A stretch of 30,838 nt of DNA, from the IMG/VR virus record IMGVR_UViG_2917413769_000005. One strand, given 5' to 3'. This stretch comes from a virus (Duplodnaviria; Heunggongvirae; Uroviricota; Caudoviricetes). Positions 4,313-27,184 of the stretch are shown here, piece after piece. The notes below the pieces were generated by a model that searched no databases, was not told the DNA's origin, and saw only the letters and a list, made by a program, of their open reading frames with translations. Each line of letters begins with the position of its first letter. The first letter of the stretch is position 1. The position numbers and the translations under genes were made by a program.

Positions 4313-6797
4313 TATCCGCGTCGCGTTCAGCGCGATCGATAAACTTACCCGCCCGGTCAATGCCGCCCGCCAGAGTGCGGGCGGTTTGTCTGAATCCCTC
4401 AAAAAAACGCAATCCAGCATTAAAGATCTGGACAGCCAGTCCCGCACGTTCAACCGTCTGCGCGACAGCGTACAAAAGACCTCTCGCAAAATTGACGAAG
4501 CCAGCCGGACGCTTGAAGGGCTGAATCAGGCGCAGCGGGAAGGTACACAGCTTACAGACAAGCAAAAAGCACATATGGCAGCACTGGCCGCAAAGCTGGA
4601 GCGCCTTAACTCTGCACGCACGCAGGAAATGGTTAAGCTGCGTGCTGCCTCACAGGCGCTGCGCAGCCACGGCGTTTCACTGGTCGGCAGTGATCGCACC
4701 ATTCAGAGCGCGATACGTCGAACCGAACAGTACAACCAGACGCTGGAGCGGGAACGGCGACAGCTTGCCGCTGTCACACAGGCACGGGCGCGCTATGACC
4801 AGATGCAGCAAACAGCGGGTAAACTTCGCGGCGGTGGCACGATGGCCGTTGCCGGGGCCACTGCTGCCGGTTACGCAGCGGGACGCTTCTTATCCCCCGC
4901 TGTTGGGTTTGACCGGGAAATGTCCCGCGTGCAGGCGCTGACCCGTATAGATAAAAGCTCAACAGACTTTTCAGCACTTCGTGAACAGGCCAAAAAGCTG
5001 GGCGCTGAAACGCAGTTCACCACGACTGACGCCGCCAGCGGGCAGGCGTTTCTCGCTATGGCCGGTTTCACTCCGCAGGCCATTCAGGCAGCACTGCCCG
5101 GCGTGCTCAATATGGCACTGGCCGGTGGCATGGATTTAGGTGAAAGCGCCGATATCAGCTCAAACATCCTGTCTCAGTTCCGCCTCGATCCCAAAGAAAT
5201 GGATCGCGTCAGTGACGTATTAACTGGCGCGTTCACACGTACCAACACCGATCTGCAAAATATCGGTGAGGCTATGAAGTACGCCGGGACAGGTCTTTCC
5301 AATCTTGGCGTCAGTGTTGAACAGACAACAGCCATGATCGGCGTGATGGCAAACGTTGGCCTGCGCGGGAGTATCGCCGGGACAGGATTACAGGCCGCGT
5401 TTTCACGCCTTGCCGCGCCAACCGGCAGGGCAAAAACCGCTCTCAAAGAACTGGGAGTAGACGTTGCTGATGCCACGGGGAAAATGCGCCCTGCTGAAGA
5501 GGTTCTCACTGAACTCTATAAAAAGATCAGCAAGTACGGCGATACCGACAAGCTCTCTTTCTTTAAAGATATCGCCGGTGAAGAGGCGTCAAAGTCATTG
5601 CAGGCACTGGTTATGTCAGCCGGGAGCGGCGAACTTCAAAAGCTGCTGGAAGCACTGAAAAACGCCAAAGGTGAGGCACAGAAAGCCGCCAAAATAATGG
5701 CGGATAACCTTGATGGCGATCTCAAGAATCTGGACAGCGCATGGGAAGGGTTTCGCATCCAGATTAACGATCTCGTCGATAACCAGCTTCGCGCCCTGAC
5801 TCAGGGGCTGAGTGATGTTGTGGGGAATATGACGCAGTGGGCGAAGGAGAATCCGAAGCTCGCTCAATCCCTGCTGGTTGTCGGCGGCAGCATTCTGGCA
5901 CTGACCGCCGCCATTGGCGGCACATCGCTGGCGATCGGCCTGCTGATGGGGCCACTGGCTAAACTCCAGTTAGGTTTTACCCTATTGACAGGGGGCGCAA
6001 CCGGAACAATCTCCGCCCTACGAACGCTCGGAACAGCTTCCGGCCCGGCAATGGCAAGTGTGCGCGGTTGGGGGCCTGTTCTCACATCAATGCTTAGTAA
6101 GCTGCGAGGCATATCGATCATCACGCCCGGCATTCGTGCCGGTCTTATGGGTGCGTTTCTTTCCCCAGGGGCTGCATTAGGATCTCTGTTCAAAAACATC
6201 GGAATGCTCGCTCTTCGCCTGACAGGCTTTACGACCATATGGAGCATTATCACGACCTCAGTATCTGTACTGGGTGCAGCGCTCTCACTTCTACTTAGTC
6301 CGATTGGTCTGATAGCGGCGGCTTTTATCGCTGCCGGATTGCTAATCTGGAGATTCTGGGAGCCGATAAGAGCCTTTTTCACCGGTTTTTTCAGCGGAGT
6401 TATGCAGCAACTGGCACCTTTCCGTGATGCCTTTTTCCCTTTGACGCTGGCCTTCTCAGCAATAGCCAAAGTCGTTGGTGAAGTCTGGGACTGGTTTGTA
6501 AAACTCTTATCACCTGTGGAAAGTAGCCGTGAATCCCTTGATAAATGCGCATCAGCAGGGGAAACATTCGGTAAAGTCCTGGGTAGCGCCCTTCAGTTGC
6601 TGCTATTACCTCTGACAACCCTCATGGAAGGCATTGGCTGGGTACTGGAAAAACTCGGCCTTATCCCTTCTGGTCTGGAAGCTGCACGCCTGAAAGCTGA
6701 AAGCCTTAAAAAAGACCCTGTTATGTGGGAGTGGGATCCGCAGCAGAAAAAAAATGGTGCAAAAGGGATGGAACTGGTCGCCAGTCTCATCAGGTAA
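4299..6797 (+). CDS. T: tail tape measure protein, N-terminal and main part (frame 0)
   Basis: Long coiled-coil-rich then hydrophobic Gly/Ala-rich protein typical of tape measure proteins; likely GTG start at 4299 (GGAG 9 nt upstream; alternative starts 4263-4293); frame ends at TAA 6795-6797 just after an A8 run. Confidence 0.8.
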   Translation: MKSLNIRVAFSAIDKLTRPVNAARQSAGGLSESLKKTQSSIKDLDSQSRTFNRLRDSVQKTSRKIDEASRTLEGLNQAQREGTQLTDKQKAHMAALAAKLERLNSARTQEMVKLRAASQALRSHGVSLVGSDRTIQSAIRRTEQYNQTLERERRQLAAVTQARARYDQMQQTAGKLRGGGTMAVAGATAAGYAAGRFLSPAVGFDREMSRVQALTRIDKSSTDFSALREQAKKLGAETQFTTTDAASGQAFLAMAGFTPQAIQAALPGVLNMALAGGMDLGESADISSNILSQFRLDPKEMDRVSDVLTGAFTRTNTDLQNIGEAMKYAGTGLSNLGVSVEQTTAMIGVMANVGLRGSIAGTGLQAAFSRLAAPTGRAKTALKELGVDVADATGKMRPAEEVLTELYKKISKYGDTDKLSFFKDIAGEEASKSLQALVMSAGSGELQKLLEALKNAKGEAQKAAKIMADNLDGDLKNLDSAWEGFRIQINDLVDNQLRALTQGLSDVVGNMTQWAKENPKLAQSLLVVGGSILALTAAIGGTSLAIGLLMGPLAKLQLGFTLLTGGATGTISALRTLGTASGPAMASVRGWGPVLTSMLSKLRGISIITPGIRAGLMGAFLSPGAALGSLFKNIGMLALRLTGFTTIWSIITTSVSVLGAALSLLLSPIGLIAAAFIAAGLLIWRFWEPIRAFFTGFFSGVMQQLAPFRDAFFPLTLAFSAIAKVVGEVWDWFVKLLSPVESSRESLDKCASAGETFGKVLGSALQLLLLPLTTLMEGIGWVLEKLGLIPSGLEAARLKAESLKKDPVMWEWDPQQKKNGAKGMELVASLIR

Positions 6798-7281
6798 AAA
6801 CAATAACGGGAATACACCCCCGCCCGGAACGCCGCAACCCACATCACCGCTGACCGGCGATAACGGCACTATGCGTCGATTGCAGAACATCGACAGCAAC
6901 ACCAAAGCGACAGCCGACAACACGAAGAAGATCGGCCCCGGCGATATTGTATTTAAAAACCTGCCGCGTGCTCTGGCCGTTCGTGGGGAATGGAAAGAAT
7001 CGCAGCTGGCCAGCACGGTCAGGAACAACGGGTTAAGCGCACGCCCCGCAGTGGTGGCGGCATCGCTTCCCGTAAAACAGGCGGAACTTCCGCCAGTCAG
7101 CCGCAGCGCCAACAATATACCGGTTGCCACTGGCGGCTTTACGGGAGAAATCCACGTACACCTGCACGGCGTTGACCGGCAGGACGCGCGCGAAATTGGC
7201 CGCATTGCTGCCGACGCGGTGAATGCCGAAATTGCCCGCCTTGCGCGGCTTAATCGCGGCAGTTTCAAAGACAGAGATTAA
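6754..7281 (+). CDS. tape measure protein C-terminal segment in +1 frame (frameshifted T or separate ORF)
   Basis: Frame open from 6694; fills the T-U gap where P2 has no gene; ends ...IGRIAADAVNAEIARLARLNRGSFKDRD right before the U RBS; frame change coincides with A8 at 6747-6754. Confidence 0.5.
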   Translation: MVQKGWNWSPVSSGKNNNGNTPPPGTPQPTSPLTGDNGTMRRLQNIDSNTKATADNTKKIGPGDIVFKNLPRALAVRGEWKESQLASTVRNNGLSARPAVVAASLPVKQAELPPVSRSANNIPVATGGFTGEIHVHLHGVDRQDAREIGRIAADAVNAEIARLARLNRGSFKDRD

Positions 7282-7295
7282 GGGGAGGCAACATT

Positions 7296-7784
7296 ATGAT
7301 GATGATATATGGGATGTTCGTTTTTGAACTGAAGACGCTGCCTTACCAGCAACTGCGCCACTCGCTGAACTGGCGTCATGTGAAGAATGATCGCATCAAC
7401 CGATCGGCAAAATGGCAGTACATCGGCGCAGGTGAGACGCAGATCAACCTTGATGGAGTGCTCTACCCTGAAATTACAGGCGGAGACGTATCTCTTACCG
7501 TGCTGGCAACGCAGGCATACACTGGGCGTCCGTGGCCTTTAATCAGCGGCGCGGGGCAGATTTACGGGATGTATGTGCTGACCGGACTACAGGCCACGCA
7601 TACGGAATTTGACCGCTACGGAAAGGCGAAAAAAATAGAGTTTTCGATCAGCTTCCAGCGCTGCGATGAAGACCTGCGCGAACGCCTGCAAGCGTCGTCT
7701 GTTGGCGATCTGCTTTCAGGGCTGAAGGATAAAGCCACGTCCGCCTATAATTCTGCCAGTAGTACGCTGTCGGGCCTGTTCTGA
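7296..7784 (+). CDS. U: tail protein U
   Basis: 162 aa MMMIYGMFVFELKTLPYQQLRHS...GVLYPEITGG pattern of P2 gpU family; strong RBS AAGGGGAGG 7 nt upstream. Confidence 0.85.
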   Translation: MMMIYGMFVFELKTLPYQQLRHSLNWRHVKNDRINRSAKWQYIGAGETQINLDGVLYPEITGGDVSLTVLATQAYTGRPWPLISGAGQIYGMYVLTGLQATHTEFDRYGKAKKIEFSISFQRCDEDLRERLQASSVGDLLSGLKDKATSAYNSASSTLSGLF

Positions 7785-19857: not shown

Positions 19858-20915
19858 TGAAGAAGCGCACCTACAAAAACAAACACACCGCCAGCAGTGG
19901 CAGTGCCGGACAGCCTGATATCTCTGACGCGCTCAGAAGCGATCCGGCGCTCAGCGCCTTCACGTTTGACGGGCCATATTCGGTAACAGACGGCTATGAT
20001 CTGCTGGACAGCATGTGCTGCGTCGATAACGGCCGGTACTACGAGACGCCAATAGACTGGAAGGGGTTAACCCGTGCGTTCGCACAGTCCCCACTGCATC
20101 AGTCGGCGCTTTACTTCAAACGCAATGTGCTGACCGGGTGCTATATCCCTCATCCGTTACTCTCGCGGCAGGCCTTCTCTGCGTTTGCGCTGGACTGGTT
20201 TGTCTTCGGCAATGCCTATCTTGAGCGTCGGTCTAATCGCCTGGGAGAGCCGCTAAAACTTAAGCATGTTCCGGCGCTGAACACGCGACGGGGAAGCGAT
20301 CTTGATACCTACTGGTTTATCCGGCAGTGGAAAGATGAATATGAGTTCAAGGCGGGCGAGGTCTGCCACATCATGAACCCGGACATTCATCAGGAAATCT
20401 ACGGTATGCCGGAATACATGGGGGCGCTTCTGTCCGCCAGCCTGTCACATTCCGCCGATAAATTCCGCAAACTCTATTACGACAACGGCTCCCATGCCGG
20501 ATGCATTCTCTATGTCGGTTCGGAGAAGGTGGATCAGGAAAGCATAAAGGTGGTGCAAAAAACGCTGTCACAGGCCAGAGGGAAAGGCTCCTTCAAAAAC
20601 GTGCTGATCCACGCGCCGGGTGGCGGCAAAGACGGCGTGCAACTGTTGCCGTTCAGCCAGATATCGGCAAAGGATGAGTTTCTTAACATCAAATCAGCAA
20701 CGCGCAACGATTTGCGCGACGCTCACCGCATCCCGCCGCAACTGATGGGCGCAATGCCGGAAGGCAACGGATCGCTCGGTGATGTTGAGAAGGCTGCGCG
20801 TGTCTTCGCCATCAACGAAATGTTGCCCGTGATGGAAGCAATGAAGGGCGTCAATGACTGGCTCGGTCAGGAAGTGATCCGCTTTAATCCCTACGCTCTA
20901 CTCAAAGACGAGTGA
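19857..20915 (+). CDS. Q: portal protein Q
   Basis: 352 aa P2 gpQ-like portal. Confidence 0.9.
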   Translation: MKKRTYKNKHTASSGSAGQPDISDALRSDPALSAFTFDGPYSVTDGYDLLDSMCCVDNGRYYETPIDWKGLTRAFAQSPLHQSALYFKRNVLTGCYIPHPLLSRQAFSAFALDWFVFGNAYLERRSNRLGEPLKLKHVPALNTRRGSDLDTYWFIRQWKDEYEFKAGEVCHIMNPDIHQEIYGMPEYMGALLSASLSHSADKFRKLYYDNGSHAGCILYVGSEKVDQESIKVVQKTLSQARGKGSFKNVLIHAPGGGKDGVQLLPFSQISAKDEFLNIKSATRNDLRDAHRIPPQLMGAMPEGNGSLGDVEKAARVFAINEMLPVMEAMKGVNDWLGQEVIRFNPYALLKDE

Positions 20916-20925
20916 CCCGCCCCAC

Positions 20926-20960
20926 CCGCCGCACATCCTGCGGCGGTTCTCCTTCAGTTA
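20926..20960 (+). terminator. rho-independent terminator after Q
   Basis: Perfect hairpin CCGCCGCA-CATCC-TGCGGCGG at 20926-20946 followed by T-rich TTCTCCTTCAGTTATTTTC. Confidence 0.6.
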
Positions 20961-21282
20961 TTTTCAATTCCCGTATGACCGGCCACCACCTGAGCACCAC
21001 TCAGCACAACCTTAACCCCCCTCACTCAGAGCGCATTAGCGCCACTCTGGCAGGCGCAATCTGCATTTTACCCCGAACACATCCAGAAGTGAGAAAAACG
21101 CGCGGAGAAGGCGAAAAAGGCCGGAGAATGGCAATTAAAGGCATCACCTCCCGACCCTCCGTCGCGTGGGCTGTTCCCCCGTCACCTGCGCGCGACATTT
21201 GCTTCGTTTTTTGTGCATTTCCCGATCTGGGGGCAGACCGCGCCACCACAGGGCGGAAAGGTCATAAACAGCATCAAAAAAA

Positions 21283-21309
21283 TTGTGCAAATTTGTGCAC
21301 TATTGTGCG
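21283..21309. repeat. three TTGTGC(A/G) direct repeats at 10-bp phasing (plus a fourth TTGTGCA at 21211), inside the probable cos/packaging region
   Basis: TTGTGCA at 21283 and 21293, TTGTGCG at 21303; non-coding stretch between the convergent ends of Q and doc. Confidence 0.4.
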
Positions 21310-21366
21310 ACAGAGAAAGAAGGCCCGGAGGGAAGAAAAGCCGCCTTTAAAAGACAGCTTCTCATG

Positions 21367-21750
21367 TCAGTGGGGATTGATGGATAGTCGGCGCAAAACA
21401 GCAGCAACATCGCCACTGCTTAATGAACCCGTCGCTGCGGATACGGTCAGTTCTTCCAGTTCATTACCTTCATCACGGATATCAATACCATTGCGCTTTA
21501 AAAAAGCCATCGCAACGAAAAAGGCGGTTCGCTTATTGCCGTCATTGAAGATATGACCACGCGAAATGGCGACGAGATACATCGCAGCGAGTTCGTGAAT
21601 ATCCTCAACGCCTTCATAGTAAAGCTGGTTCTGAACACGATAAATGATCGCCTCTGCTCTTCCCGGTTCTGGCATCCCCTGAACGCCGGGCAAAGCTGCA
21701 AGCAGACGATCATGAAACGCTATCACCTCCTGAGCGCTGATCCATTTCAT
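21367..21750 (-). CDS. doc: Doc toxin (Fic-fold)
   Basis: Strong resemblance to P1 Doc including HIFNDGNKRTA Fic-type motif and PGRAEAIIYRVQ; ATG overlaps the phd stop. Confidence 0.85.
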   Translation of the reverse strand: MKWISAQEVIAFHDRLLAALPGVQGMPEPGRAEAIIYRVQNQLYYEGVEDIHELAAMYLVAISRGHIFNDGNKRTAFFVAMAFLKRNGIDIRDEGNELEELTVSAATGSLSSGDVAAVLRRLSINPH

Positions 21751-21968
21751 CTGTCAGCCAGCGCCTTAATGGTACGACCGTGTCGCCCCATAATTTCAGC
21801 AAATTCAGCATCCAGTTTTGCTTCCTGCCACGCATTGAAATCATCCCGGCTGATAAGCACAGCGGCAGAGCCATCGCGGCGGGTAATTTCTACAGGCTCG
21901 CCAGCCGTAGCCGCCTCCATTACCTCAGCAATATTTTGCCGGGCCTGAGATGTGGTATAGGTTCGCAT
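21747..21968 (-). CDS. phd: Phd/YefM-family antitoxin
   Basis: MRTYTTSQARQNIAEVMEAATAGEPVEITRRDGSAAVLIS...AKLDAEFAEI resembles P1 Phd; strong RBS AAGGAGGT 5 nt before ATG 21968. Confidence 0.8.
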   Translation of the reverse strand: MRTYTTSQARQNIAEVMEAATAGEPVEITRRDGSAAVLISRDDFNAWQEAKLDAEFAEIMGRHGRTIKALADR

Positions 21969-21978
21969 ATAACCTCCT

Positions 21979-22005
21979 TTGATGTACATATTAAATGTAC
22001 ATCAA
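21979..22005. promoter_or_regulatory. putative phd-doc operator
   Basis: Perfect inverted repeat TTGATGTACAT-ATTAA-ATGTACATCAA immediately upstream of the phd RBS; another GTACA follows at about 22011. Confidence 0.5.
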
Positions 22006-22195
22006 AAACGTACAACAAGCAACGCTATCACCTGAGCCAGACCTATTTGCATTAAGCGCCACGTTGTGGCGCTAGCGGACTCTTTGCCGCCCGCGCCCGC
22101 AGAATCGTTATAACCTGCGCAACAAGTTGCGAAGGCTATAACGATTGCCATTTGATTCTTTTCCAGTGGTCTTACACACCTGAGATAAACCCATC

Positions 22196-22705
22196 TCAGA
22201 AAACTGGATTAATTTTGCGGTGGTAGAGCACTTCCCACAGAAGCGATATCAACTCTTCCTGCCTGATATCCACGGCTTCACTGGCGTCATATTTAGCCAT
22301 CAGCTCATTGATTCGCTCAACAGACAATGGCCCTGCGGAATTTACCGCTGATCGGGAAGATGGGAGACAGCTTTCTTCAGGCGGATGCTCTTCACGCCAT
22401 TTCTTTGCCGCCCTCTCATTCATCAACTGCCATTCGGGATATCGGTTAAATAGCTCACGCTCGGTACTGGTTCGCGCATCATGGCCTTCATCTGCCAGCC
22501 GCGCTGGTTCTGGCTCGCAGCTTTCAGACAAAGCAATATCGTCGGGAGCGTCAAACGGTTTTAACCCCTTGCAGGTGCAGCAAATGCGATCATTAAAATA
22601 ATACTTTTCCTTGTAGTGCAGCTCGTTACCACACTTACGGCATCGCTTAATTTTGTTACTGATGAAATCAATTACTTCCTGCTCTCGCTGTTCTTCGTCA
22701 AACAT
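22196..22705 (-). CDS. hypothetical zinc-ribbon protein
   Basis: Cys cluster CRKCGNELHYKEKYYFNDRICCTCKG; sits where P2 has orf91; 5' end overlaps the 3' end of A; start uncertain (22705 or 22747). Confidence 0.5.
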   Translation of the reverse strand: MFDEEQREQEVIDFISNKIKRCRKCGNELHYKEKYYFNDRICCTCKGLKPFDAPDDIALSESCEPEPARLADEGHDARTSTERELFNRYPEWQLMNERAAKKWREEHPPEESCLPSSRSAVNSAGPLSVERINELMAKYDASEAVDIRQEELISLLWEVLYHRKINPVF

Positions 22706-25281
22706 ACGCGCTGCCCCTGATTCCTGGTGCCAAACAACCTGTCCCACGCAGCCGGATCAGCTTTTTTCAACATTTCCGCATAGCTGCCAACGGGATCATG
22801 CCTGATATCTCTGCTGTCAACATTATGACTTAGCTTCATATGCTGCCACAAATCGGCAGTCTTACGGTCAGCTCCGTTATCTTTTCTGCGCCTCAGCTCT
22901 CCGCTGCTGGTTGCGGAGACAATAAAGCCATCAATTCGCAAACGCTCACCGCGTAGCAATAACGTTAACTGACCTGTGCTCAGTTCTATGCCTATAGATT
23001 TGGCAAAATCATCCAGTGCCGCAATGCGATCGACTGATACAGGAACTGGCCCGGTAACAGCAGGCATATCCCTTTCCTGCTGCCTCAATTCCTGAGCAAC
23101 TTTTAGATAGCTCTCGGCCCTGGCCTGCTCAATATCATCACAATCTGATGCCGTAATGGCATTAGCCAGCGCCTCAAACTCATCAGCAGGTGATTTTTGC
23201 CGTTCCGGTTTGTAGTTTCTGATGCTTTCGTTGAGCCTTTTTTTCTGCTCGTGGGTCATTTGACCAATTTCATACTGTTCAGGCTCAACTGGTGGCGAAT
23301 TTTCACCCTCTGAATTTGTATGTTTTTTGACCTCAGTACAGTTATTGACACGAGTCCTAGAGGGCGCGGACGCGCCCCGAAGGTCAAAATCAAAGTCAAC
23401 GGCCTGCCCGGAGTCGTCTAAAACTTCCGGTTTCTTACGCACAATGCGGTAGGTATGCAGGCGGGTTTCAATTGGTGGGATGTGAACGGCCGGCATCATC
23501 AGACCTTTGATAAGATCCAGATACTCGCCGTAATCATTTGGTTCGTCTTTCTGCTGGTACCAAATGCGCAACGGCAGATCACGGCGGGCAACCAACGCCC
23601 CGCCTTGCAATTGGGTGTATTGCTGCCAGTCGCCAGCATCCGCAGCACGGTGCAGCTCAGCAAATAGCGGGTTTATCTTGTCGGCCTGTTCCTGATTGCG
23701 GAACCGGCGCAGCTCACGCCAGACAGATACCGGCGCGCCGCCCAGAAACTGAAACTGACGGATGCCCCAGCAAGATGCCCAGGCGGTTGCATGTTTTGAA
23801 GTTTCTTTCAGCGGCCTGCCGCTCTCGTCGTCGGTTTCACCGTCGAGCGCGTAGCCGTCAATATTCTTACTGATGTACTTCACCACATAGCCGGTGGCGC
23901 TGCCGATTTCATGATCGATCGGCTTCATATCAAAACGCGGTTGGTTGCCGTGTTTGCCCTGCAACTCTTCCGCATCCTCGCGGGTTGCGTAGTCTTCCAT
24001 CACTTCCAGCAGCTCGGCAGAATGTTCCGGCAGGGAGAACAGCAGGCCGTGCCAGTGCGGCGTACCATCGTGATGAGACTCAGCCACCCGCAAACCAAAA
24101 ACAGGGATTTCACGGCGGGCCAGCTCAGCGCGGATCTGTTGCCATACCCGGTTAAGATAACGCTGCGTGGCTCTTGGGCTGGCACCGTTCCATTTGGCAT
24201 TACGATGACCGAATACGGTATATGCGTGGTATTTGGATGGCGCTGTCAGGGTAAAAAACTGTCCCGCGTATCCGCTTTCGGTGGCGACTTTCTCAAAACC
24301 ACCAATGCGGGTCATGAGTTCAACGCGGCGTAATGCTGGATTAGAAATGCTCTTATCGATCTGCTCAATAAGCGAAATACGCTCTTTGGTGTCCTGGTCT
24401 TCCAGCTCAAGGCGAGCCATGATCGCGCGGCTGCGTTTGCGCCTGGCATCCCACTCATCAACGTGGTGCTTACTGCAATAAGGCGCAGCGCCCCGCTTCA
24501 CATCACCAAAGGCGATATGCAGGTGCTCACGCCAGCGCGCCGCGTACTTTTTCAGGTTACGATGCCAATAGCGATCATCCAGCATCTTACTGATGCCAGT
24601 AGTAGCCTCATCAATAAACAGCGTTCCCCGGCAATACTTTGCCCAGCTCGGAGGCGTCAGGAAGAAAAGCCGCGCGAGGATAGCCGCTTCGGTGTAAAGG
24701 TATCCGGCATATTTGCGATCACTCTGAGTCTCTACCGTTTCGTGAACTTCGCTCAGCACAGACCGCATATAGATAGCAATATCCTGCGCCAGCAGCTCAA
24801 CATCTTCCGGCGTGAAATCCGGCAGGCGGTTAAAGCGCTCAACCAATCCGTGAAGAGTGTGAAACGTGTGGTAAAGCGGGTTTACCCCTTTGAATGCTGT
24901 ATCAGCCTGAGATTTAGCCTCATCGGTCACCGCAATAGCGTATTGCTCATTCACCATGTTGATGGGCGGGAGATCCCTGCGAATAATATCGCGTAGCGCC
25001 AGACGGGCGATGTGCCTGCCCTTCATGGTGTGAATGCTGTCAATACGGGAAGCCAGACGCAGGCGAATAAAGCGAGGTAGCGGCGCAAGGGTAACTTTCA
25101 CCCACGCCAAAAACTCCTGTTCTTGACCCAGCTCGACTAGATCAACAACGGGAGTCTTATCAACACAAATGGCAGCTTTCGGCTTCTGCCATTCGTAAGC
25201 GTACCGGGTGGCGTCTGGTGCGCTACCCGGATACGGAGGGGGCGGCGTTGGAGCGCCACGCCCACTGGCTGCGGTGGTCAT
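22672..25281 (-). CDS. A: replication initiation endonuclease A (rolling-circle HUH type)
   Basis: 869 aa; HUH-like motif ESHHDGTPHWHGLLF and Tyr region GYVVKYISKNIDGY as in P2 gpA; position upstream of the cos-proximal accessory slot. Confidence 0.85.
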   Translation of the reverse strand: MTTAASGRGAPTPPPPYPGSAPDATRYAYEWQKPKAAICVDKTPVVDLVELGQEQEFLAWVKVTLAPLPRFIRLRLASRIDSIHTMKGRHIARLALRDIIRRDLPPINMVNEQYAIAVTDEAKSQADTAFKGVNPLYHTFHTLHGLVERFNRLPDFTPEDVELLAQDIAIYMRSVLSEVHETVETQSDRKYAGYLYTEAAILARLFFLTPPSWAKYCRGTLFIDEATTGISKMLDDRYWHRNLKKYAARWREHLHIAFGDVKRGAAPYCSKHHVDEWDARRKRSRAIMARLELEDQDTKERISLIEQIDKSISNPALRRVELMTRIGGFEKVATESGYAGQFFTLTAPSKYHAYTVFGHRNAKWNGASPRATQRYLNRVWQQIRAELARREIPVFGLRVAESHHDGTPHWHGLLFSLPEHSAELLEVMEDYATREDAEELQGKHGNQPRFDMKPIDHEIGSATGYVVKYISKNIDGYALDGETDDESGRPLKETSKHATAWASCWGIRQFQFLGGAPVSVWRELRRFRNQEQADKINPLFAELHRAADAGDWQQYTQLQGGALVARRDLPLRIWYQQKDEPNDYGEYLDLIKGLMMPAVHIPPIETRLHTYRIVRKKPEVLDDSGQAVDFDFDLRGASAPSRTRVNNCTEVKKHTNSEGENSPPVEPEQYEIGQMTHEQKKRLNESIRNYKPERQKSPADEFEALANAITASDCDDIEQARAESYLKVAQELRQQERDMPAVTGPVPVSVDRIAALDDFAKSIGIELSTGQLTLLLRGERLRIDGFIVSATSSGELRRRKDNGADRKTADLWQHMKLSHNVDSRDIRHDPVGSYAEMLKKADPAAWDRLFGTRNQGQRVCLTKNSESRK

Positions 25282-26297
25282 TTCACCGCATCCATGTAAG
25301 CACTTATGAAGGTTGCTGCGACTTCCGCGCAGATGGCATTTCCGTAGGCGCGCAACTGGCCCACTCTTCCGGCAACCCCATTAACCAGCGGCTTAAGTCC
25401 TGGTTTAACTGGCCTCCACTTTCCATCATGGCAGAAGAGCCAGTCAGCATCTTGCCAGAAGCCGTTAACCTGATGGGGCCAATCATTTTTGATTGCTGGG
25501 TCAGACTGCTGCCCGTCATCGCCGGAGTGATCCCCCTCCCGCCCCTGGTTCCGTCCGATGCACTCGGAGTTGTCCAACCGGATAACTGTGCTGTCACATC
25601 CAGCCGATCCGTTGACAGCTTCCCGTTGCGAATCCTCCCTCCCTGATACCCCCCTTTCCCATCCGTTGCTGTTGGAGTATTCCACCCCGCTAGGCAGGCA
25701 AAATCTTGCAGATTCGACTGCCTGCCCGCCATCATTCTGGCTATAACTTTCAATGGATCCTGATACGCGTTTTTGACGTTGCTCGCGTTCGGAGTGGGCC
25801 ACCCAGAAGAGGCGCTGTCTTATATGCGGGGCACCGAAGCCCGCAGCGCAAAGATCGAGAGCTGTTGCGGCGTAGCCCGTTCCTTCCAAGTCAGTCTGTA
25901 CAATGTCGAACCAACCGAGGCCGTCCTTGCTTGCAACCTGCTCACCAAAGACAGTCTCAGGGCGGCACTGCTCAATGAGATAGTGGAAATGGGGCCAAAG
26001 GTGCCGCTCGTCAGTAACCCCTGCTCTTTTGCCTGACTGGCTGAAAGGTTGGCACGGGCAAGAGCCTGTCCAGATAGGGCGATCGTCCGCCCATCCAGCC
26101 CGGCGCAGGGCGTAAGACCAGACGCCGATCCCTGCAAAGAAATGGCATTGAGTGAATCCGTTAAGGTCATTTGGTGTTACTTCCTCAATAGAACGGGTGT
26201 CAACAACGCCCGGCGCTATGTGCCCAGCGTCAATAAGATTGCGCAGCCATTGAGCCGCAAAGGGATCGATCTCGTTGTAATAAGCCGTCACAATCAC
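25278..26297 (-). CDS. C5-cytosine DNA methyltransferase (frame integrity uncertain)
   Basis: Frame A carries FFAGIGVW (motif I-like), GSCPCQPFS (PCQ), FGEQV (ENV-like), APHIRQRLFWV (motif VIII-like) and C-terminal LRAYGNAICAEVA (motif X-like); GTG start overlaps the Dam stop; middle part is low complexity. Confidence 0.6.
   Translation of the reverse strand: MIVTAYYNEIDPFAAQWLRNLIDAGHIAPGVVDTRSIEEVTPNDLNGFTQCHFFAGIGVWSYALRRAGWADDRPIWTGSCPCQPFSQSGKRAGVTDERHLWPHFHYLIEQCRPETVFGEQVASKDGLGWFDIVQTDLEGTGYAATALDLCAAGFGAPHIRQRLFWVAHSEREQRQKRVSGSIESYSQNDGGQAVESARFCLPSGVEYSNSNGWERGVSGREDSQREAVNGSAGCDSTVIRLDNSECIGRNQGREGDHSGDDGQQSDPAIKNDWPHQVNGFWQDADWLFCHDGKWRPVKPGLKPLVNGVAGRVGQLRAYGNAICAEVAATFISAYMDAVK
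25307..25819 (-). other. alternate-frame open segment inside the C5 methyltransferase gene, with G-W-x-T-P-x-A-x-D repeats and a motif IX-like RWLMGLPEEW
   Basis: Frame open from the TAA at 25820-25822 to the stop at 25304-25306; three repeats (GWPTPNASN, GWNTPTATD, GWTTPSASD) differ mainly at this frame's synonymous positions. Confidence 0.4.
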
Positions 26298-27184
26298 GCC
26301 CCCTCAGCACACTGCCCGCAGCTCTCACAGTTCCCGCAACCACCTGCCGGGCATCCCTCAACGATGCCCAAAGTGCCGATCACCTCTTTGGCCTTCTGGC
26401 GGTTGCTGGCGTCAGTGCTAACAGAGCGCTGCACGTCGATTTCATGCAGGCGGAAACGGTGGTAAATCTCGCGGGTGGTTTCGGTGTCACTGTTGGAAAT
26501 GACAACCGGCGCGCCATATTTGCGGTTCACTTCCAGCAGCTCCGCCGCTAACTGGCGGTGGTGCTTCTCGGTGAATGGCTCGGTGTGGTATTGGGTGAAA
26601 TTGGCGGTTTCGCTGGCAGGCAGGTACGGGGGATCGCAGTAGATGGCTTCATCCGTTCCAACCATCACTTTGAGGGTGTTTTGAAACGAGCTGCACAGAA
26701 AAATAGCTTTGGTGTCGTTGGCCTTCTCAGCAAACTGGCGGATCTCCGCCTCCGGGAAGTAAGGCGCGCTTTTGTGCTGACCAAACGGGACGTTATAACC
26801 ACCGCTCTGGTTGTAACGCACCACGCCGTTGTAGCCGTGGCGGTTGAGGTACAGAAACAGAGCCGCGCGGGCCACATCAAGCAAGCCTTTTGTACCGTTG
26901 AAAATGCGGCGGTTCTGTAAGTATTCCTCTTTGGAATTGCCGGTCGCAAAGAGCGGGCGGGCAAGATCAATCACCAGCTCAGGATTGCTTTTTACCTCAC
27001 GATAAAGGCGGATCAGATCTGGGTTGATATCCGCAAGAATGTACCGGCGATAATCGGTATTGAGGAACACGGAAGCGCCGCCAACAAAAGGCTCAACGAG
27101 GCAACCAGCCTTTGGTAAATGCGGCAGTAATTCAGGCATCACGCGGCTTTTGCCACCGGGCCATTTGAGTAGAGATCGAATCAT
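26294..27184 (-). CDS. DNA adenine methyltransferase (Dam-like, D12 class)
   Basis: N-terminal KWPGGK and catalytic DPPY motifs; RBS AGGAGA 9 nt before ATG 27184; Cys-rich C-terminal tail. Confidence 0.85.
   Translation of the reverse strand: MIRSLLKWPGGKSRVMPELLPHLPKAGCLVEPFVGGASVFLNTDYRRYILADINPDLIRLYREVKSNPELVIDLARPLFATGNSKEEYLQNRRIFNGTKGLLDVARAALFLYLNRHGYNGVVRYNQSGGYNVPFGQHKSAPYFPEAEIRQFAEKANDTKAIFLCSSFQNTLKVMVGTDEAIYCDPPYLPASETANFTQYHTEPFTEKHHRQLAAELLEVNRKYGAPVVISNSDTETTREIYHRFRLHEIDVQRSVSTDASNRQKAKEVIGTLGIVEGCPAGGCGNCESCGQCAEGA

Follow-up and report, generated by a model that had tools for sequence, protein, structure and literature searches.

The window analysed here is the whole 30,838-nucleotide (nt) stretch of IMG/VR virus record IMGVR_UViG_2917413769_000005, assigned to the Caudoviricetes. 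On its minus strand, between the 3′ end of the replication initiator gene A and a phd-doc toxin-antitoxin pair, lies a gene for a zinc-ribbon protein of 169 amino acids (aa), here called Z (Table 1). An earlier note, made from the sequence alone, had described it as an open reading frame (ORF) of 170-183 aa overlapping A by 34-76 nt, and only the shorter form stands. In at least eight lineages, in fact, the first residue of all Z homologues falls at the ATG position; a Shine-Dalgarno-like sequence is found 6-9 nt 5′ of the start in every one of the eight lineages examined (for example TAGGAGG in the related locus L005 and AAGGAG in L048, at the equivalent position); and the 14 codons between the upstream GTG and the ATG are not conserved at the protein level among homologues. 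For these reasons the ATG is taken as the true start of Z, the 183-aa form beginning at GTG (22196..22747, minus strand) is ruled out by its unconserved 5′ codons, and the overlap with A therefore amounts to 34 nt, not 76 nt.

This overlap is a variable feature across relatives. In most lineages A stops 8-11 nt ahead of the Z ATG, and in L005 the TAG stop lies inside the Shine-Dalgarno sequence. The corresponding codon of the window reads CAG (22717-22719), so that its A protein is 14 aa longer than that of relatives such as L005 (tail at 22672-22716); the 34-nt overlap is due to this replacement of a stop codon. A fusion of A and Z by frameshifting was also considered and is ruled out, as the two genes are kept apart in most lineages by a stop codon and a spacer.

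Z is a real gene under strong purifying selection. The ratio of nonsynonymous to synonymous substitution rates (dN/dS) is 0.07, 0.09 and 0.12 against relatives 98%, 97% and 75% identical, within a range of about 0.07-0.15, which rules out a chance or shadow ORF. Specifically, purifying selection is strong on the zinc ribbon (dN 0.058, with dS saturated) and on the C-terminal module (dN/dS 0.02-0.03), and is relaxed on the two linkers (0.2-0.9).

The encoded protein is modular. An AlphaFold2 model built from 12 sequences (mean predicted local distance difference test score, pLDDT, 67.6; predicted template modelling score, pTM, 0.25) consists of separate ordered modules connected by disordered segments: a helix at residues 3-18, the zinc ribbon at pLDDT 81-85, an acidic disordered linker at 55-75, a long helix at 80-106 carrying the invariant W92 and W103 and the nearly invariant Y89, a second disordered stretch at 113-124 and a helix-loop-helix at 129-162 with invariant E130, Y139, D140 and E151. 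The cysteines follow the pattern that had been described from the sequence, C22-x2-C25 ... C42-C43-x-C45, with the qualification that all 16 family members keep C22, C25, C42 and C45 (CxxC-x16-CxxC) but not C43. These two invariant CxxC knuckles, together with the well-modelled ribbon, place the protein in the Cys4 zinc-ribbon class, metal binding being predicted. The earlier remark on an acidic, Trp-containing C-terminal part is borne out by an isoelectric point (pI) of 5.1 for the whole protein, acidic over its C-terminal two-thirds, and by W157, nearly invariant in addition to the two tryptophans above. Residues 1-52, comprising the first helix and the ribbon, have a calculated pI of 7.6 with 11 Lys/Arg; the ribbon is basic and exposes invariant surface residues (K20, E28, Y31, E33 and K34). 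The bulk of the conserved sequence lies outside it.

Database searches agree with the earlier statement that no family could be recognised. Z falls into phrog_21788 (E = 1.5e-85, residues 1-165 against profile positions 2-172 of 172), the sole library family containing it; the match is full-length, but the family is unannotated and of unknown function, so that membership is uninformative on function. The protein is identical to WP_135495392.1 of Escherichia sp. E1130, whose 90% cluster extends over Escherichia, Citrobacter, Enterobacter, Cedecea, Klebsiella, Kluyvera and Mixta, all named records being "hypothetical protein". The whole family comprises 11 clusters in a collection of 5.8 billion proteins and 21 representatives (E <= 0.001) among 1.84 billion proteins, and Z is present in 8 of 5426 complete E. 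coli genomes. A tblastn search with Z and one divergent relative gave no match in 50,697 GenBank phage records or 72,556 plasmids, and a pattern scan of one genome per species confirmed no Z locus. Scans of Z against Pfam, NCBIfam and PADLOC returned no family; in particular, none of the 5027 defence-protein hidden Markov models of PADLOC-DB v2 matched at E <= 0.1. A Pfam scan of 16 relatives gave scattered, non-recurrent generic zinc-ribbon matches (E > 0.02), the best matches in fold comparison were transcription-factor zinc fingers, weak and not significant, and no homology to a known replication accessory protein was found, conservation itself being clear. A literature search found no paper for the PHROG identifier or for WP_001514719, a near-identical E. 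coli homologue in RefSeq. By these comparisons, Z belongs to a very small, uncharacterised orphan family without detectable relatives.

The genomic position of Z is constant. In all loci recovered with upstream sequence, namely in E. coli, Cedecea and Enterobacter chromosomes and in IMG/VR viral contigs, Z stands directly 3′ of A on the same strand, and this order persists next to A proteins that share as little as 29-40% identity with that of the window. What follows Z is, by contrast, exchangeable. The gpA-gpQ interval of P2 is defined as a defence hotspot, occupied by tin, old and other systems (Rousset et al. 2022, PMC9122126; PMC13586616), and Z lies inside the interval so defined (PMC9122126), with known or candidate defence systems as its neighbours in related loci: bSEFIR, PDC-S73 and PDC-M62 A/B by PADLOC library matches, and an nSTAND3 protein in one E. 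coli locus. This downstream cargo is low in GC (30-36%), mostly convergent, and different in all seven Z cases compared. In the closest E. coli relatives a different 101-aa gene replaces phd-doc, and homology to the E. coli prophages stops at 22071, at the GC-rich hairpin. Z thus stays with the A backbone while its neighbours are exchanged, and it does not behave as cargo in the sense of a cassette exchanged between otherwise near-identical prophages; it differs from the hotspot content in acting as an A-side flank, in being oriented opposite to most cargo and in matching no defence model. It is not part of the phd-doc cassette either, since Z occurs with other cargo and a 94.5% identical cassette stands at the equivalent hotspot of L002, a different E. 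coli P2-like prophage that has no Z.

Some observations concern the cargo itself. A perfect palindrome with 12-nt arms, TTTGATGTACAT-N5-ATGTACATCAAA (21978-22006), overlaps the start of phd and is likely the phd-doc operator. Several related loci carry large hotspot ORFs of low GC (30-38%) and 469-743 aa with no PADLOC match, and these may be uncharacterised defence genes. In the interval between the portal gene and doc, a C-rich stretch at about 21150-21200 bears a loose likeness to the P2 cos end GGCGAGGCGGGGAAAGCAC (from L021) in reverse complement and may be the cos site.

Z is dispensable. A search of IMG/VR with the A C-terminal domain described below recovered 23 loci, 14 of which carry Z (in one case as a 59-codon zinc-ribbon stub). 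Three others retain only its first 13-15 codons, fused to low-GC cargo (L031, L032 and L035, 3806-3856), and one retains 39 codons, R21 being replaced by an in-frame stop (L039, 3812-3928); in the remaining five the position of Z is taken by IS1 (one locus) or by other genes (four). The siblings with remnants of 13-39 codons have a near-identical A, and P88 and related phages (16 GenBank records), which share the same type of A C-terminal domain, have no Z and are viable; it is from these two facts that dispensability follows. In phage P88 (L049), A is directly followed by parM, and in L015, a Xuanwuvirus-like viral contig, a 155-aa Z homologue lies between A and a ParM-like gene (5998-7501). 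Moreover, unrelated low-GC cargo is joined to these remnants, so that cargo can be exchanged with its A-side junction within Z.

Scans with promoter consensus sequences found no conserved internal promoter, promoter-like sites being not above chance. A single match to 9 of 12 consensus positions, 117 nt 5′ of the Z ATG, is at chance level and falls on conserved His-Asn codons of A. Downstream of Z, the 160 nt that follow the stop fold with a minimum free energy of -63.6 kcal/mol (z = -4.84 against shuffled controls), which upholds the description of a structured intergenic region, even if the inverted repeat GCGCCAC-GTT-GTGGCGC lies at 22056-22072 and not at 22066-22082 as had been given. Differences between the window and the E. 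coli copies in the long hairpin are G-U wobbles on the Z sense strand alone, and pairing of the GC-rich hairpin is kept in relatives by two compensatory changes and one wobble. An insertion of 44 nt directly after the Z stop (about 22152-22195), which gives rise to the stop-proximal hairpin, is found in the window only; the E. coli and IMG/VR copies, which are 96-97% identical, lack it. None of the downstream hairpins is conserved across the wider Z family, Rfam returned no family over 20800-23000, and a terminator scan found no canonical intrinsic terminator 3′ of Z. The structured 3′ untranslated region (UTR) is consistent with the end of a transcription unit, and the hairpins may be read as 3′-end structures of the early transcript together with module-boundary hairpins. 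A 49-aa ORF in the same region (22002-22151, minus strand, MAIVIAFATCCAGY...) is probably no gene: its N-terminus is encoded by the arms of the long hairpin, its 3′ part spans the cargo junction, and it is unannotated in relatives.

Table 1. Features of the Z locus, modules of the Z protein and large ORFs in the hotspots of related loci. Positions are those of the window unless residues or another locus are named.
Feature	Position	Strand	Remarks
Z coding sequence	22196..22705	-	169 aa + stop, from ATG
Shine-Dalgarno-like AGGGG	22714..22718	-	8 nt 5′ of Z ATG; within the final codons of gene A
A/Z frame overlap, 34 nt	22672..22705	-	A tails and frames compared in 18 loci
Gene A, rolling-circle replication initiator, 869 aa	22672..25281	-	Pfam Phage_GPA, 2.9e-100; phrog_91
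A C-terminal domain, ~100 aa	22714..23019	-	DFAKSIG...LRIDG...HDPVGxYAxML..DPxAWxRLFG; from A alignment
Stop-proximal hairpin CTGAGAT/ATCTCAG	22180-22199	-	Includes Z stop codon; in feature 22152..22199
Long 3′-UTR hairpin, 21-nt arms	22103..22146	-	Kept in close E. coli and IMG/VR relatives
GC-rich hairpin AGCGCCAC-NNN-GTGGCGCT	22055..22073	-	Boundary of Z backbone and phd-doc cargo
phd	21747-21989	-	Toxin-antitoxin pair; hotspot cargo of the window
doc	21367-21750	-	Toxin-antitoxin pair; hotspot cargo of the window
C5-cytosine methylase-like ORF	25278-26297	-	Partial Pfam profile match, residues 76-175
Dam-like methyltransferase	26294-27184	-	MethyltransfD12, 4.7e-64
Z: N-terminal helix and Cys4 zinc ribbon	residues 1-50		
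Z: acidic disordered linker	residues 52-77		
Z: conserved Trp helix	residues 78-108		
Z: second linker	residues 109-127		
Z: C-terminal helix-loop-helix	residues 128-165		
Large low-GC ORF, locus L006	7825-9423		
Large low-GC ORF, locus L009	9578-11809		
Large low-GC ORF, locus L012	9464-10873		
Large low-GC ORF, locus L005	7948-9621		
Large low-GC ORF, locus L013	7174-8649		

The A protein next to Z ends in a domain of its own type. This C-terminal domain is found in all Z-bearing loci where the 3′ end of A was recovered. It is missing from A of P2 and from A of the Z-less prophage L002, which is 87% identical to that of the window up to about residue 796 and then diverges. Gene A is, in other words, a mosaic, the C-terminal domain of the window being common to Xuanwuvirus (P88-like) phages and not to P2 (L002, L021 and L049 compared), and sequence comparison suggests recombination junctions inside the gene. 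Directly upstream of A, on the same strand, are two DNA methyltransferase genes (25278-27184).

Several known systems invite comparison. In P2, A is followed by orf91, overlapping the stop of A, and then by the convergent tin and old with their own transcript starts. Orf91 (DUF3850) is like Z in its strand, in its start at or over the A stop, in being the last gene before convergent cargo, and in being non-essential and of unknown function. The earlier placement of Z in the orf91/tin slot therefore holds, Z being on the strand of A, coupled to its 3′ end and ahead of tin/old-type cargo. The two proteins share the slot only: BLASTP gave no alignment between Z and Orf91 at E <= 100, and no DUF3850 Pfam match is found in Z or in 16 relatives. 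Z is in this sense a known kind of gene, the non-essential terminal gene of a P2 early operon beside the hotspot, with an uncharacterised protein family.

As regards the protein, small proteins of the E. coli YacG type bind a host enzyme and are built from a short Cys4 ribbon with an acidic, Trp-containing segment behind it, and the general layout of Z is similar. Profile searches against PDB sequences gave weak EF-hand-like alignments alone: residues 128-165 align with single EF-hands of the calmodulin and centrin kind at E = 0.05-0.95, which is not significant, with the invariant D140 at loop position 1, the nearly invariant I147 at position 8 and the invariant E151 at position 12. The canonical calcium-binding loop has 12 residues, those at positions 1, 3, 5 and 12 being acidic or polar, that at 6 Gly and that at 8 hydrophobic. 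Loop positions 3, 5 and 6 are unconserved in Z, however, and no Pfam EF-hand match occurs in 16 members, so that the likeness is best regarded as a resemblance and not as membership. Other phage zinc-finger proteins are also distinct. DksA/TraR proteins (P2 Orf82 type) have the spacing CxxC-x17-CxxC following a coiled coil, the Ogr/Delta late-gene activators have CxxC-x22-CxxxxC, and Z matches the Pfam model of neither.

Taken together, these observations lead us to propose, with a rough probability of 0.45, that Z is a non-essential accessory effector of early lytic growth. Its status as an accessory gene follows from dispensability and patchy distribution. Its orientation, the Shine-Dalgarno sequence in the last codons of A, the lack of a conserved promoter and its inheritance with A argue for expression with A in lytic development, a pattern that a lysogen-expressed defence gene would not show. 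The reality of the gene, the selection on it, its metal-ligand pattern, its place in the operon, its coupling to A, its inheritance with the backbone and its dispensability are shown, and the timing of expression, the adaptor or inhibitor mode and any target are inferred. Z would be made together with A, from the A operon, during lytic growth. The layout, in which acidic linkers that evolve fast connect two conserved parts, the zinc ribbon and a helical module, suggests an adaptor or inhibitor with two binding sites: the ribbon would attach either to nucleic acid or to a first partner, and the C-terminal helices would hold another. Lytic growth would gain from it, through replication support, host takeover or counter-defence, and protection of the lysogen would not be its role.

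A number of points weigh against this proposal. The GC content of Z is 5-10 points below that of the phage backbone, as is typical of acquired accessory genes; homology and fold searches give Z no functional assignment; and the structure model is only moderate in confidence (pTM 0.25). A promoter for Z inside A, in place of the A transcript, is possible. In addition, dispensability argues against any essential role with A, and it fits equally well a gene useful only in particular hosts or against particular competitors, exclusion included.

Among the other explanations, the best to survive is that Z is a dedicated cofactor of A, which we consider unlikely. Tight linkage of this kind is typical of proteins acting together, the association holds across divergent A proteins, and Z always accompanies the A C-terminal domain, so that a functional interaction of the two is possible. 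The reverse does not hold, as the domain occurs without Z in 9 of the 23 IMG/VR loci and in the 16 GenBank records of P88-like and related phages, siblings with a near-identical A have remnants of Z only, and physical linkage alone can explain the co-occurrence.

Somewhat less credible is the explanation that Z is a defence or exclusion gene. The earlier note had proposed an accessory or defence-associated gene, and of this the accessory part is retained, Z being lost or truncated in siblings and missing from P88-like phages, while the link to defence does not extend beyond position. Position does count, as do rarity, patchiness and a GC content below that of the backbone, and many unannotated hotspot genes have proved defensive on testing, on evidence from P4 loci. 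On the other hand, Z matches no PADLOC model, points the same way as the early lytic operon, with close linkage to A in place of a promoter of its own, and differs from the cargo of related loci, mostly convergent and much lower in GC. It is kept with the A backbone while adjacent defence cargo is swapped and is always accompanied by separate cargo, so that it is not the sole payload of the locus. Z is, then, probably not prophage defence cargo. Least probable of all is a nucleic-acid-binding regulator, for which the basic ribbon with its invariant surface residues, the weak and non-significant fold matches to transcription-factor zinc fingers and the highly structured 3′ UTR could be invoked, but against which stand the lack of conservation of the downstream hairpins across the family, the constancy of Z while the cargo changes, the missing match to Ogr/Delta, DksA/TraR or other zinc-finger regulator families, and the location of most conserved sequence outside the ribbon.

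The gpA-gpQ interval of P2-like prophages is mined systematically for defence systems, and every gene from A to the portal gene is taken as candidate cargo. The case of Z shows that an A-proximal gene can belong to the phage early operon and not to the cargo, and genes of this sort need to be set apart before the content of a hotspot is counted or cloned. The Z protein is an orphan combination of folds, strongly selected, and its gene is at present a rare accessory gene and a candidate for a small phage effector; should its target prove to be the host replisome, A or a defence system, P2 biology would gain a new small effector. A more daring and rather doubtful extension is that Z founds a Peduoviridae-specific family of early effectors that would use the zinc ribbon and the helical module to clamp a host protein, a component of the replisome or of a defence system, in favour of phage replication, possibly by way of the A C-terminal domain. 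If this is true, Z would be a new factor for counter-defence or host takeover, encoded on the margin of the P2 defence hotspot.
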